Positions 1 through 12,000 of a stretch of 64,000 nt of DNA are shown here, one piece after another. Numbering within the stretch: the stretch's first letter is position 1; each line of letters begins with the position of its first letter. Source of the stretch: a plasmid; assembly GCF_056746865.1 (NCBI RefSeq), contig NZ_JBWKMP010000005.1; one strand, written 5' to 3'. A program made the position numbers.

Positions 1-3000
1 CTGGTTCTCGATGCCCGTAAGAAAGCCAGCGAGAAGAAACAATTAAAACGTAAGGGATAAAGCCCCGAAGGGCTTTATCATTTCAGCCTGGCTGACTGTA
101 GAATCCAGTGATTTTTTCCGTTTTCGTCCAGGCCGTGTTCGTAAGCTGCAAGAGCCGCTTTCATTATTGCTGTTTTTGTCTGGCCTGTTCGCAGTGCTTC
201 CCGTTCCAGAATATCTTCGTAAACGTCCCCAAGCCGGACATTGGTCACTTTAGTTGCTCCCGATTTTTTGCGGGTAGCTTCATTGATGAATCGGGCTGTG
301 TCTGCATTGGTTTGTTCTGTTTTTTGTCCTGGTATTACCGGAGTTTTCAAGTCAAGAGCCATTATATCACCTTTCGTGTGTTACATTAGCTTTACTGTGT
401 AAAGTTAATGATGTAAAGCTGTCGTATTACATCCATTAGGGATTGATGCCTAACTCTTGCGCCAAAAGCTCTATTTGTGCTTTAGCTGTAGAAAGGCTGG
501 ATGCGCGACGTACATCATGAACGCCAGCGCCTTCATTACAGGCCGCTTCAAAAATATCTAAATCTGAAATACGTGTACGAAGTGGCTGTATCCACACCGG
601 GTTCTCCCGGAGTAACTTGTCGAGATCAATCGCTGCTTTTCTGTGGCGTGGTTTTGTCGTGTTAATTCTCGTGAAAAGTACCCAGGGTTGCAGGTCTGGA
701 TTGATCTGTTGAGCTGTGCGAACTTTTTCTGTTACATGAGTCAGCGTTTCTGCTTCGAAATCTGAAGACGGCTTAACGAGAGTAAGCAGAATGTCAGCTA
801 CAGTTAAGGCACTGCGAAATTCCTTGCTGTCATGCCCTGGACAGTCAATGATCAGCACTTCACATATTTTTTTCAGGCGCTTAATGACTTCTGATACATC
901 GCCATACTCTTCATAAACAGGAACCGGTAATAAGCCATTCTGCTTTCTTTTTTCGTTCCAGCTAAGAATATCATTGTTTTTATCGGTCTTCAGAATGATG
1001 ACCGTTCGTGAATTATTTACCAGATAAGAAGCCAGGTTTGTTGCTGTGGTGCTTTTTCCTACACCGCCTTTATCTGATGCGACAAGTAATGCTCTCCCCA
1101 TAGAAACCTCGGATATACAGTGTAAAGGTTTATTTGTCTTTACATTGTATTCATTATAGTTACGTTGTAAAGATGTTTGTGTCTTTACAATGTAATTGTT
1201 TTTGTGCTTTACATTGTGTGTATGTTACCCAGTGCGCCGTAAAGCCCCGTCCTTCAGGTCGGGGATATAAGGCGCGGTTTTCCACCTAACTAGGTGTTTG
1301 CTGTTGTTCAATGTATTGGCGGATGATGGATATTGGCGCACCTCCGCAGCTACTGGCAAAATAGCTGGGACTCCATAAAACGCCTTTGTAGTAATACCTG
1401 ACTGCAATATCTGGTCGATCTCGTCGCAATAATCTACTCGATACGCCCTTGAGACTGTTCACCAGGGTGGATATCGCCAATTTGGGAGGATAGTTAATTA
1501 GCAGGTGAACGTGATCTCGTTCTCCATCCATTTCAACCAGTTCAGCTTCAAAATCAGCACATACACTTGAAAAGTAAGTGCGTAGTTTTTCTATTGCGTC
1601 ATGGTCAAAAATCTGGCGTCGGTACTTGGTAACAAAGACCAGGTGAACGTGCATCAGGAAGACACAGTGCCTTCCACGTCGGATATCGGTTTCTTTTTTC
1701 ATAGGCCAAAGTATAATTTGGCATATGAAACGACTACAAGCTTTCAAATTCCAGTTAAGACCAAATGGAAAACAGGAGCGTGAAATGAGGCGCTTCGCGG
1801 GCGCATGTCGTTTCGTTTTCAATCGTGCTCTGGCGCTTCAGAATGAGAATCATGAGGCCGGGAACAAATATATTTCTTATGCAAAGATGACTTCCTGGCT
1901 GGTTGAATGGAAAAATGCTACTGAAACGCAATGGCTTAAAGATTCTCCCTCACAGCCATTGCAGCAGTCACTGAAAGACCTTGAGCGAGCCTACAAAAAT
2001 TTCTTTCAGAAGCGTGCCGCTTTTCCCCGATTCAAAAAGCGGGGACAGCATGATGCATTCCGCTATCCGCAGGGTGTTAAGCTCGATCAGGAAAACAGCC
2101 GTATTTTTCTGCCGAAACTGGGCTGGATGCGCTACCGGAACAGCCGTCAGGTCACGGGTGTTGTGAAAAATGTCACTGTCAGCCAGTCCTGCGGTAAGTG
2201 GTACATCAGTATTCAGACAGAAAGTGAAGTATCAACTCCGGTTCACCCTTCAGCATTAATGGTCGGGCTGGATGCTGGCGTGGCTAAACTCGCCACGCTG
2301 TCAGATGGCACGGTCTTTGAGCCTGTAAACAGTTTTCATAAAAACCAGAAGAAGCTGGCGAGACTTCAGCGCCAGTTAAGCCGCAAGGTTAAATTCAGCA
2401 ACAACTGGCAGAAGCAGAAACGCAAAATACAGCGACTGCATTCCCGTATCGCAAATATCCGCAGGGACTACCTTCACAAAGTCACAACGACCATCAGCAA
2501 AAACCACGCAATGATAGTCATTGAGGATTTGAAGGTCAGCAACATGTCAAAGTCAGCCTCGGGTACGGTCAGCCAGCCGGGGCGCAATGTCCGGGCAAAA
2601 TCAGGTTTAAACCGTTCGATACTGGATCAGGGCTGGTATGAAATGCGCCGTCAGCTTGAGTACAAGCAGCTCTGGTGTGGCGGTCAGGTGCTTGCTGTTC
2701 CGCCAGCGTACACAAGCCAGCGTTGCGCGTGCTGTGGTCATACAGCGAAAGAAAATCGCCTGTCACAAAGTCAATTCAGATGCCAGGTATGTGGATATAC
2801 AGCGAACGCCGATGTAAACGGCGCTCGTAACATTTTAGCGGCGGGGCACGCCGTTCTTGCCTGTGGAGGGATGGTGCAGTCAGGCCGCCCGTTGAAGCAG
2901 GAACCCACCGAAATGATTCAGGCGACAGCCTGAACGTAGCAGGAATCCACGTCCTTCAGGGCGTGGAGGATGTCAAAGGGTAACTTTTCAGGATGCGATT

Positions 3001-9000: not shown

Positions 9001-12000
9001 TTTGTTTTCTTCTCTAGGATATGTCAAAAAGGAAATGCAGGGATCAAGAGTGCGATTTTTCAATGCTGAAATTAATCACACAATATTAATGCATCGCCCA
9101 CATCCAGAAAGTTATATTAAAGGTGGAACGCTGAAAGCTATTAAACAGAACTTGAAAGAGGCTGGGGTTTTATGAAACATTTAAAATATAAAGGATATTT
9201 AGGTACGGTTGAGCCGGATTTTGAAAATAATATCCTGTATGGAAAGCTGGCATTTATTCGTGATCTGGTGACTTATGAGGCAGAAACATTGGCTGACCTG
9301 GAACGGGAATTTAAAACATCGGTTGATTTGTATTTACAGTCCTGTGTGGAGGACGGAAAGGAGCCTGACACGCCCTTTAAAGGTGTGTTTAACGTCAGGC
9401 TTGATCCAGAGCTGCATCGTCGGGTCGCTGAAATGGCGATGGAAGAAGATTTGTCGCTGAATGCCTTTGTCAATAAGGCACTGGAAAAAGAAGTCAGTCA
9501 TCATCGCGCAGGGGCTTAATCGCCCCTTTTTGTTGCTCGCAGGCGTTGATGTTTCTTGGTATTACGGTGTAGTGTGTTGTATTTACAAACAATGCTTTAC
9601 GGTGTATTACGATGCATACTCTTTAATTGCTTGCAATCTCTTTTCACGTTCGTTGCTTTGTTCAGCTTTTTTCAATTCACTGAATATGTACTCTTCATCT
9701 TTACCCGTGAGTTTTGAACCGGAGAGCAAGCGATTAACAACTTTACGTCGAATTGCAGGGTAATCTTTGGTTTTATCGAGTATGGACAATATGCGGTCAC
9801 TACTAAGAATCTGGCCTTTCCCTGATTCCACATAATGTAGAAAAAATGCGATTGCGGACACGCCCAAAAGCACTGTAAGGACGGCTACACCATCAAGACG
9901 AAACTTTGATATAAAGGAATACGCGACCACTCCAATAATTGCTAAGCAGAGACATAAATAAATTAAGAGGTTTTTGTTGCGTTGTTTTTTTTGTGCGCGA
10001 TCATGATCATCTATGATTGCCAGTATCTTTTCTGGAGTTGCTTGAGCCATTTTTTTTCCTTATCAGGGAGACGGAGTGTTCAATCATCTGGCTTTACAAT
10101 GTAAAGCTGTGTTTGTCTTTACGGTGTAAATAATGAGATGTGCAGTTAAAAGTGTCAATCAGGTATCATATAGTAAAACACTATATGATTTTTCTGTAAT
10201 AGGCTTAAAAAATTCTCGCTTACATTGTAAAGGTCTTTGTGTCTTTACAGTGCACCACGTTGTAAATCACTGCCTTCTGTGGAGATAATCATGTTTTTTT
10301 CTGTTGGTGTCGAAACACCGAAAGATGATCAGACTGCATACGGCATCACTGTTCCGGCTTTTGATTGTTTTGGTTTTGGATGTGTTTCTGCGGCTGATTC
10401 TCAGGCAGAAATACCCGCTATGGCGCGTGAAGCGATATTGGCAATCGTGGAAGATATGGTATTAAGCGGTGCTTATTCTGTTGATGATATTCATGATGAA
10501 GGGTGTTTGACTTATTCGGATCACTCCAATTATAAGCACTGTGATAGCTGGTTTTTGGTTGATGTCGATTTAACATTAGACATGCCGTAGTCCGGCTATC
10601 GGGTCATGAGGACGCTGAAGAATATCGCAGGCATATATTTACAGTGTAAAGGTGTTTCTGTCTTTACATTGTAAGGCTTATTGAATACTACACTGTAGTG
10701 CAATGTATGTGTTTTTATGACCTATCCCCGCGTTGTGCGGGGATTTTTTTTGATAGCTAACCGCTCGCCGCAGTCTAGCGACCGAGCATAGCGAGCGAGT
10801 GACGAGGAAGCGGAAGATCCACCGTTGCCAGGAGAAAAGCAGGTACGCACTATGCATTCTGCCCTAGTGATGCTTTCACAAACCACGCGGCCTGAACTAT
10901 TACGCCATGAATCCAGCGCAAATCGGCATCACGATTTTCTTTTTTCATTTTTTCGCCACTTAAAGCCTTGCTTACGTGACTTTTTACCAGATTTTCGTGT
11001 AATTCTTTTGCTTCTTCAATTGTGAAACCACCAGGCAAATTTGGCGCTTCTGCTTCCAGTGATGCCAGAGCAATTTCATAAGCCCGGCGCTCAATATTGT
11101 CTCGCACGTCCAGGCTGCCGATTCGCTCCCTGATTTCTTTAATTAGTTTCTTGTCGTCGTCGGTAAATGTTGTCATCTCACTCTCCTTTGGCGTCAATGT
11201 TTACAGCCTGGCAAGCCTCTTTGAGCACCCAGTCAATAGCGTCTTTCCATGCCCCTGTTTCGACGGGAGGATTCGTGTGCTTTACCTGATCGTAGAAGCG
11301 TACTGCGTTTACCAGTCCTCTTGTTGGTGCTGCTATCGCAGGTGGTAAGTTGTAGAGTTCCTGAATTTCATAGTTCGGCCTGTCGTTGCAGTCTTCTTTT
11401 GTCGGCACGTATTTCCAGTCACCAACCCACGTTTTACCCTGAGAGTCCGTAACGTCTTTTTTCACGTAACGATACCTCCATGCAACAACCCCAGCTTCCA
11501 GCGATGCCAGTGCGATTTCATAAGCCCGGCGTTCAATATTGTCTCGCACGTCCAAGCTGCCGATTCGCTCTCTGATTTCTTTAATCAGTCCCTTGTCGTC
11601 GTCGGTAAAAGTTGTCATTAGTGACTCCTTTTCATATCTATGGTTTTCTTGAATCAATTTCGTCTAGTTTGAGTTTTATATTTTGCTGGTCTGATTTTGG
11701 TAATTTTCTCATGCTCTCTTCAGTTATTTTTTTCATATCAAGAAAAGCTCTTGCATAGAAGCGCAGGCTTGCCTCTTTTTCATGTTGTGCAACATACCAG
11801 GTTGCGCCAGAAAATGCCGCAGACAGGCATAATGTGCACAAGGCACAAATTGCAATGGCTGTTCTTGTACTGAAGGGTTTTACAGCCTTAGATAATGACT
11901 TCAACTTTTCTTCATATAATTTGTTGTTTTTTTCCTGGTTGCGTTTAATTCCAGATATGAGTTCAATAATATCATCTGTTAATTTTTCTTTTACCTCAAC

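Follow-up and report, generated by a model that had tools for sequence, protein, structure and literature searches.

A heptad repeat family in an IncI2 plasmid

The DNA considered in this work, referred to below as the window, is a stretch of 64,000 nucleotides from a plasmid (NCBI RefSeq assembly GCF_056746865.1, contig NZ_JBWKMP010000005.1). It is an IncI2 conjugative resistance plasmid; for positions 1-1224, an identity of 99% or more is shown by 489 plasmid records, and two of these records, which were fetched in full, are typed as IncI2/MOBP/MPF_T. The window begins with a partition (par) operon, in which parA is followed by a gene for a 94-amino-acid (94-aa) protein of putative ribbon-helix-helix (RHH) type, and this operon is followed by maintenance genes and leading-region cassettes. 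In the intergenic DNA adjoining parA, hicAB, the gene for a 147-aa membrane protein, an orphan hicB-like open reading frame (ORF) and the leading-region cassettes, the heptad TGTAAAG and its inverse complement CTTTACA recur, often as the 24-bp inverted repeat TGTAAAG-N10-CTTTACA (sites A to H, Table 1). The subject of this work is this repeat family and the protein that is likely to bind it.

The first-pass annotation of this DNA had reported the inverted repeat at eight or more loci. In the whole window there are 6 matches to TGTAAAG-N10-CTTTACA with no more than two mismatches (at 1121, 1166, 5865, 10100, 10226 and 10645), where dinucleotide shuffles give 0.27 on average and never more than 3. 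All 9 exact copies of TGTAAAG are intergenic and lie between 398 and 10645, with none in the other 53 kb, and 10 of the 15 exact copies of CTTTACA are found between 1138 and 10662. Counting both orientations, the window holds 24 exact heptads (mean in shuffled sequence, 9.6), 18 of which are located inside eight short intergenic clusters. The 24-bp inverted repeat is highly non-random and is no artefact, and the repeat family that had been described is real. Of its eight loci, seven are clear (390-418, 1113-1215, 5857-5912, 8730-8773, 10092-10131, 10218-10249 and 10637-10676), but the eighth, at 9560-9610, is degenerate. The short palindrome CTTTACA-n-TGTAAAG, which was also noted at that time, likewise exists, its sole perfect copy being at 10092-10106, and the positions given relative to the genes are correct, viz. 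upstream of parA, of the 147-aa gene and of the hicB-like ORF, some 95 bp ahead of the -35 element of hicA, and at both junctions of the insertion sequence (IS) copies described below.

A position matrix made from 14 distinct units of IncI2-type loci gives the consensus tTACA-n-TGTAAAG-nT-N5-TGT-CTTTACA-n-TGT. Conservation in this matrix extends to columns outside those used for selection, viz. TACA preceding the left heptad, a T that is invariant at the second position of the spacer, and TGT both before and after the right heptad. Based on this consensus, each site consists of two imperfect 15-bp palindromes (CTTTACA-n-TGTAAAG) with their centres 25 bp apart, of which the inner two heptads are near-invariant and the outer heptads are degenerate. 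An Rfam scan of the window gave no match, and no account of the TGTAAAG/CTTTACA motif as a plasmid element was found in the literature among the matches listed.

Table 1. Positions of the heptad sites and of the genes and elements discussed in the text.
Feature	Position	Strand	Description
94-aa RHH gene	78-362	-	Follows parA; proposed heptad binder
Site A	377-432		Spacer between parA and RHH gene; CTTTACT-g-TGTAAAG, second TGTAAAG at 412, flanking TTACA remnants
parA	436-1101	-	221-aa small Walker-type partition ATPase; KGGVGKS motif; no N-terminal DNA-binding domain
Site B	1113-1221		Main array upstream of parA; perfect 24-bp units 1121-1144 and 1166-1189; third unit, N9, 1191-1213
IS200/IS605 copies	1229-2976; 5943-7690		Two identical copies of 1748 bp in direct orientation; Y1 TnpA and TnpB
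GC-rich repeats	2986-3340; 3900-4075; 7692-8045; partial copy 8775-8850		~330 nt, before leading-region genes
Cassette-promoter palindromes	3346-3374; 4079-4107; 8049-8077		ATACATCT-N4-AGATGTAT, perfect, enclosed by promoters TTGATA-17-TATTAT
HTH gene	5579-5821		80-aa Xre-type helix-turn-helix (HTH) protein
Site C	5857-5942		3' of HTH gene and 5' of third GC-rich cassette; perfect unit 5865-5888, N9 unit 5890-5912
Site D	8730-8773		After terminator 8671-8693; ~95 bp upstream of hicA promoter (TTGACA 8863, TATAAT ending 8891)
Site E	9562-9605		Between convergent 3' ends of hicB and 147-aa gene; TTACG-g-TGTAGTG, ATTTACA, CTTTACG
147-aa membrane-protein gene	9607-10050	-	Predicted promoter TTGACA 10158-10153, CATTAT 10135-10130
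Site F	10092-10131		CTTTACA-a-TGTAAAG-N10-CTTTACG-g-TGTAAAT; overlies predicted minus-strand promoter of 147-aa gene
Site G	10218-10267		Upstream of orphan hicB-like ORF; GCTTACA-t-TGTAAAG-N10-CTTTACA, plus TGTAAAT at 10261
hicB-like ORF	10291-10590		Orphan
Site H	10637-10676		ATTTACA-g-TGTAAAG-N10-CTTTACA-t-TGTAAGG; between hicB-like ORF and bidirectional terminator 10724-10744; no obvious downstream gene
Overlapping ORFs	10850-11197; 11178-11657	-	Adjacent
133-aa gene	13117-13518

The par operon and its small partner protein

The ParA protein matches the NCBIfam family ParA_partition (NF041546) with an E-value of 2.9e-29 and 102 bits, which falls short of the curated threshold of 180 bits. 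In the 94-aa protein, conserved N-terminal motifs LKLxxP and ARFI are followed by a strand-helix-helix region at about residues 39-77 and an extra C-terminal helix at residues 80-93. It shows a weak match to Pfam RHH_1 over residues 40-74 (independent E-value 0.0049), and in its AlphaFold2 model the predicted local distance difference test score is 83-92 over the core and 60-71 over the N-terminal 40 residues. When this model was compared with PDB structures by Foldseek, the top seven hits were all CopG (template-modelling score 0.75, normalised to target), with further RHH proteins such as Reg576, Arc and NikA ranking after them, and some records annotate the 94-aa protein as CopG family. By sequence and model, the operon displays the features of a type Ib partition module, viz. 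a small ParA without a DNA-binding domain, a small partner of RHH type (with moderate confidence) with a putatively flexible N-terminal tail, and, upstream of the operon, an array of repeats in direct and inverted orientation, which covers its predicted promoter both here and in all cognate homologues. In the available part of the description of the plasmid pHNSHP45, only a 'putative parA partitioning system' is mentioned (PMC8053102).

Within this operon, site B adjoins the ribosome-binding site of parA and holds the only good predicted parA promoter, whose minus-strand -35 (TTTACA, 1171-1166) and -10 (TACAAT, 1149-1144) elements are both made of heptad sequence. The same site is identical in the IS-free IncI2 plasmids L001 and L014.

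Heptad arrays accompany the ParA-RHH pair in other plasmids

Using the 94-aa protein as a tblastn query, homologues were found in about 2,300 plasmids. Word-based homologue searching yielded close relatives only. An exhaustive search of 1.84 billion representatives gave no more than 29 cluster representatives; the family is therefore small. In the contexts retrieved, which include three metagenomic or genomic ones, the gene for the homologue lies directly 3' of a ParA, and the identity of the ParA (47-75%) tracks that of the RHH protein (35-56%) across the loci. All of the cognate ParA-RHH pairs examined (IncI2, IncX3 and six other loci) are flanked by TGTAAA-type heptad arrays. In IncX3, where the RHH protein is 55% identical, at least 12 TGTAAAG/ATAAAG heptads are present upstream of parA and more in the spacer, arranged as TGTAAAG-N10-CTTTACA units; an Edwardsiella plasmid (RHH 48% identical) has arrays upstream of parA and in the spacer like those of IncX3. 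In five further loci (L007, L012, L016, L018 and L019; 35-49% identity) the arrays upstream of parA and in the spacer are made of TGTAAATAC/TGTACATAC heptads, and in L007, L018 and L019 these repeats are also found downstream of the RHH gene. The spacer heptads of all these plasmids are the counterpart of site A.

A natural swap control is provided by the plasmids L002-L004 (NZ_HG739084.1, NZ_CP146674.1). Their ParA is 33% identical and its partner is a 100-aa protein without detectable similarity to the 94-aa protein. Around this par operon, and at several further intergenic positions in the leading region (e.g. upstream of a RelE/ParE pair), a different palindrome, TGTGTAWWWWTACACA, is found, and a single orphan TGTAAAG unit is retained after the shared HTH gene. 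The motif thus appears to switch with the small partner of ParA, while its dispersal is common to both systems, which supports the ParA partner as the binder. Of the three proteins that the first-pass annotation had put forward as candidates, the small ParA partner is favoured, whereas the HTH protein is disfavoured and the 133-aa protein is without support.

When species-representative genomes were scanned with a 33-bp consensus, four loci were found. Two of these are IncI2-like DNA in unlikely hosts, viz. a metagenome-assembled genome labelled 'Bacillota bacterium' (JAEWTL010000067.1), with IncI2-type hicB-like and 147-aa genes, and a 305-bp contig of Acinetobacter idrijaensis (JQCU01000064.1), with the end of the HTH gene and an IncI2-type site C; contamination or mis-binning of these assemblies appears likely. 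The remaining loci, found in Vibrio and Bacillus, are singletons, and neither has a ParA or RHH gene nearby. The locus in Vibrio sp. RE86 lies on a 470-kb scaffold and is a perfect operator-like 40-mer (L022, 10650-10690), ATTTACA-g-TGTAAAG-N10-CTTTACA-c-TGTAAAT; no ParA, RHH or HTH homologue is present within the 13.7 kb that were fetched, and the 40-mer may be due either to chance or to an unrelated protein that uses it as a site.

Sites outside the par operon

Besides their par arrays, IncX3 and the Edwardsiella plasmid carry extra heptad sites, IncX3 one site upstream of a gene for a DnaJ-domain protein and the Edwardsiella plasmid three sites, each upstream of a cassette gene. The cassettes concerned are homologous to those of the window and have the order GC-rich element (about 330 nt), promoter, conserved leader. 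In IncX3 and Edwardsiella the sites are located between the GC-rich element and the promoter, whereas in IncI2 sites B, C and D are upstream of the GC-rich element; further, the spacing shows constraint: IncI2 units and those of every par array have N10, and the IncX3 and Edwardsiella cassette sites have N21, which is longer by one helical turn.

The individual sites of the window also recur in other IncI2 plasmids. Site C is native in the IS-free plasmids L014 and L015, and it is this site that is retained as an orphan in L002 and L004, which have the different par system. The spacer of site D (8738-8765) is N14 in the window and N10 in other IncI2 plasmids. The degenerate site E is found in L001 as well; this site is weak and may be a relic. 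In the counterparts of site F in L001 and L015 the heptads are kept while the spacer and centre vary. In L001, L014 and L015 the unit of site G stands before another gene (a second type of hicA), with unrelated spacer and flanks; from this, selection on the heptads and their spacing can be argued. For site H, a further IncI2 plasmid (H30) has 10637-10800 conserved by itself. The site is followed by some 50 nt and then by the strong bidirectional terminator, with no ORF in 10677-10750; this segment could give a short transcript or be the end of a converging minus-strand operon.

Predicted core promoters are overlapped only by sites B (parA) and F (147-aa gene), the latter spanning the -10 element, the start site and the early transcribed region; no overlap at C, D, G or H is convincing. 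Plus-strand promoters that would use the distal CTTTACA of B, C or D as their -35 element were sought by eye, and no acceptable -10 was seen.

The GC-rich repeats before the leading-region genes (Table 1) resemble single-stranded DNA (ssDNA) promoters or ssi elements (Frpo-like). The minus strand of 7700-8090, folded as ssDNA, has a z of -5.0 relative to shuffles, and homologous elements precede the cassette genes of IncX3, Edwardsiella and IncF-type plasmids. The perfect palindrome that the cassette promoters of the window enclose is replaced at the same aligned place by ACCATCA-N2-TGATGGT in IncX3 and by TTACCGCA-N4-TGCGGTAA in Edwardsiella, and the 80-aa HTH protein is 48-52% identical between the IncI2, IncX3 and Edwardsiella plasmids. 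This palindrome looks like the operator of a second operator/repressor pair, for which the HTH protein would be the candidate binder.

Proposed role of the RHH protein and alternative explanations

In our judgement the heptads are probably the sites of the 94-aa RHH protein, which would form a type Ib module with ParA, sites A and B serving as centromere and auto-operator and the same protein acting at C, D, F, G and H. The paired beta-strands of its dimers would recognise the TGTAAAG heptads. The dense site B, together with site A in the spacer, would be the centromere of the par operon and also its operator, and the isolated one- or two-unit sites C, D, F, G and H, beside maintenance genes and leading-region cassettes, would be occupied as well. 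At F the bound protein would occlude the promoter of the 147-aa gene, while the other sites could be operators of an auxiliary kind, roadblocks, or additional sites for centromere-like pairing. A plasmid that has newly entered a transconjugant, without RHH protein, would express its cassette genes until the protein builds up, so that their expression would be transient. The system would then be a probable case of type Ib partition with an RHH regulator that has an extended regulon. A more far-reaching proposal is that one RHH protein, common to IncI2 and IncX3, is both centromere binder and master switch of the leading-region cassettes, with its operators fixed relative to the GC-rich ssDNA-promoter-like elements. 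This is put forward tentatively, as a possibility that we would not at present favour; if correct, it would link early expression after transfer with a subsequent shut-off and with the building of the partition complex. The earlier suggestion of one DNA-binding protein coordinating gene expression, or of a set of centromere-like sites, is partly borne out in that the arrays travel with the ParA-RHH pair and that IncX3 and Edwardsiella have extra cassette sites; however, promoter overlap is found at parA and the 147-aa gene only.

A number of observations weigh against the role proposed here for the 94-aa protein. The assignment of this protein to the RHH family is of moderate confidence, combining weak sequence scores with a medium-confidence model. 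An IncX1 plasmid (L006/L011, CP074235.1) encodes at 7201-7512 a homologue of the RHH protein which is 46% identical and has the same beta-strand, and heptad arrays would be expected in it, but no TGTAAA-type heptad cluster is present anywhere in this plasmid; the homologue is the third gene behind a non-cognate ParF/ParG pair, and ACTC-type boxes occupy that promoter region. A rule that relates residue 41 of the beta-strand (N/T) to base 7 of the heptad (G/T) fits five loci, but it fails for P0022/L018 and was dropped for this reason. The predicted promoter nearest to sites C and D is about 95-450 bp away, and H is without a downstream gene. In the window, the two IS copies part B and C from the cassettes which they precede. 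Lastly, the available part of a study of pHNSHP45 reports that deletion of orf00050 ('CopG family') had little effect on host growth and fitness (PMC8053102). This gene is probably the orthologue of the 94-aa gene, as it is numbered next to pcnR.

Of the alternatives, the one that deserves most consideration is that the sites are purely centromere-like, with the RHH protein building and pairing partition complexes and having no part in transcription, in the way of parC1/parC2 in pB171 or of parS sites present in multiple copies. The arrays are indeed densest around the par genes in every member of the family, sites C, D and H are outside predicted promoters, and the dispersed omega sites of pSM19035 all function as centromeres (PMC3074150). 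However, B holds the predicted parA promoter and F covers the -10 element and start of the promoter of the 147-aa gene; the extra sites of IncX3 and Edwardsiella have a fixed place between GC-rich element and cassette promoter; and known analogues combine both roles. A purely centromeric function is thus considered unlikely.

The dispersed copies outside par could also be passive relics, i.e. module boundaries that recombination or duplication has multiplied, any binding at them being without consequence. A stretch of 37 bp is identical in sites B and C, and their distal parts are similar; due to this, C looks like a duplicate of B, and by our reading it is a paralogue of it that lacks about 45 bp from the centre of B. 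Further, the cassettes are modules that occur repeatedly, site E is a degenerate copy, and the spacer of D has a 4-bp insertion in the window. On the other hand, F, G and H keep their heptads and N10 while spacer and flanks differ, G-type units stand before different genes, and independent plasmid families keep their cassette sites at N21, which makes this explanation quite improbable.

That the binder is instead the 80-aa HTH protein, with site C as its own operator, is likewise a very doubtful proposition. Site C lies directly 3' of the HTH gene, homologues of the protein are found in IncX3 and Edwardsiella, and L002 and L004, which are without the 94-aa RHH protein, keep an identical HTH gene together with the orphan unit. 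However, beyond this orphan unit these same two plasmids have no TGTAAAG sites at par or elsewhere, and the IncX1 plasmid, which is devoid of a heptad cluster, has an HTH homologue (48% identity). Conversely, no HTH homologue is present in the 5-10 kb stretches of L007, L012, L016, L018 and L019, all of which carry arrays. The cassette-promoter palindrome, which varies between plasmids as the HTH protein does, is a better candidate for its site.

Least probable of all is a host protein or another plasmid protein, e.g. the 133-aa product, with the heptad resembling half a TyrR box and a -35 hexamer: TTTACA does match the -35 consensus at 5 of 6 positions and the 133-aa protein has homologues in Edwardsiella (47% over 74 aa) and L004, but the arms of a TyrR box, TGTAAA and TTTACA, are separated by N6, compared with TGTAAA-N12-TTTACA or TTTACA-N1-TGTAAA here, the motif variant (TGTAAAG or TGTAAATAC) follows the RHH member of the plasmid within the same host group, and the 133-aa protein has no NCBIfam match, is without a homologue in IncX3 and does occur in L004, a plasmid lacking the arrays. 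VirBR of IncX3, which recognises an AT-rich site at actX, is a different, non-RHH protein of 85 aa.

Relationship to known systems and significance

Going by these analogies, the closest known system appears to be omega/delta of pSM19035, and Reg576 of p576 also appears closer than KorB. In pSM19035, the RHH protein omega, with a flexible N-terminal tail, and the Walker-type ParA delta work with 7-bp heptads in direct and inverted orientation (PMC3074150), and the omega heptad arrays overlap the copS, delta and omega promoters and double as centromeres, partition being linked in this way to other maintenance functions (PMC3074150). The present system shares with it a small RHH protein, a Walker ParA and 7-bp heptads in both orientations, although here these are known from sequence alone. 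However, the WATCACW heptads of omega are contiguous, with 7-10 per site, whereas the heptads here are not contiguous but have gaps of 1 and 10 (or 21) bp, and the dispersed sites contain 2-4 of them; the geometry of assembly must therefore differ from that of omega. In addition, there is no detectable sequence similarity to omega, parA and the RHH gene form a single operon here, and the targets would be leading-region cassettes and toxin-antitoxin neighbours and not copy control.

Reg576 of the Bacillus plasmid p576 is an RHH repressor with dual-heptamer TTATCCC operators at four establishment-gene promoters including its own (PMC6294495). Two dimers bind per operator, and expression is transient after transfer (PMC6294495). 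The likeness, which here concerns architecture only, lies in an RHH protein and dual-heptamer operators at several leading-region genes; the differences are that Reg576 has no link to a ParA or a centromere and that its host is Gram-positive. Moreover, its authors set the system apart from ssDNA promoters (PMC6294495), whereas the cassettes described here carry GC-rich structured elements resembling such promoters. In the Foldseek comparison Reg576 ranks 12th against the 94-aa model, with a probability of 0.30, and homology beyond the shared fold is unsupported.

In ParF-ParG-parH of TP228, a small ParA without a DNA-binding domain is likewise followed by a small RHH centromere-binding protein, and the array of direct and inverted boxes upstream of the operon also serves as its operator (PMC5016525). 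In contrast to the heptads, the boxes of ParG consist of ACTC tetramers separated by AT-rich spacers and do not extend beyond the par promoter region. ParG proteins form a family of their own, different from the present RHH family, as IncX1 carries both.

The comparison originally made was with KorB/ParB-type global regulation in IncP plasmids. It was also noted above that the partner of ParA is of putative RHH type. KorB is a ParB-family HTH protein that recognises 13-bp OB palindromes and acts at a distance. The logic of KorB/IncC, in which sites of a partition protein are spread over the plasmid and partition is coordinated with other operons, would hold for the present case, but the probable binder is an RHH protein and not of the ParB/KorB HTH type. 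No ParB-family protein is encoded beside parA, and no match to this family was found among the nine ORFs of positions 1-14000 that were run against NCBIfam, the remainder of the window not having been searched. The par2 system of pB171 has a small MinD-like ParA, an RHH-type ParB, and repeat arrays that lie upstream of parA as well as downstream of parB, which is the array layout seen in L007, L018 and L019; we know of no dispersal of its repeats to other operons.

Control circuits of this kind are familiar from plasmids, and the proposal extends a known principle and overturns nothing; what is new is its occurrence in the IncI2 family, for which none was found described. No description of partition or backbone regulation of IncI2 and IncX3 was found in the literature searched, and in that on IncI2/IncX3 partition, RHH proteins, centromeres and the leading region the motif and the targets of the protein are undescribed, though much older plasmid literature lay outside the search. 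If the 94-aa protein does control segregation and leading-region and maintenance genes through one motif, a testable regulon is defined, and the system would be a Gram-negative counterpart of the omega and Reg576 systems. The motif or the protein would then also be a likely incompatibility or curing determinant, as the plasmid should become unstable when operator DNA or the protein is provided in trans. These results would be useful for the biology of IncI2 and IncX3 plasmids, which are described, in the available parts of two reports, as major vectors of mcr-1 and blaNDM-5 (PMC8053102, PMC11214620); the IncI2 and IncX3 records fetched in this work carry these genes.

Insertion sequences and other features

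The first-pass annotation had also drawn attention to the adjacency of the motif to the IS insertion points. Both junctions are confirmed, the empty sites being given by the IS-free relatives L001, L014 and L004, and both copies are located at the edge of the heptad arrays, immediately 3' of TTAC and without target duplication. The adjacency itself is incidental, however. Elements of the IS200/IS605 family insert 3' of a TTAC-like tetranucleotide, and as CTTTACA contains TTAC, the location of the two copies is a target-site effect. The IS pair brackets a block (2977-5942) that contains the genes for a 109-aa protein, a DnaJ-domain protein, a 180-aa protein, an 84-aa protein and the HTH protein, and it could delete or move this block.

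Beyond site H and its terminator, the two adjacent minus-strand ORFs (Table 1) overlap each other and have a near-identical N-terminal segment of 40 aa (MTTFTDDDK.LIKEIRERIGSLDVRDNIERRAYEIALASLEA), which suggests a partial tandem duplication.

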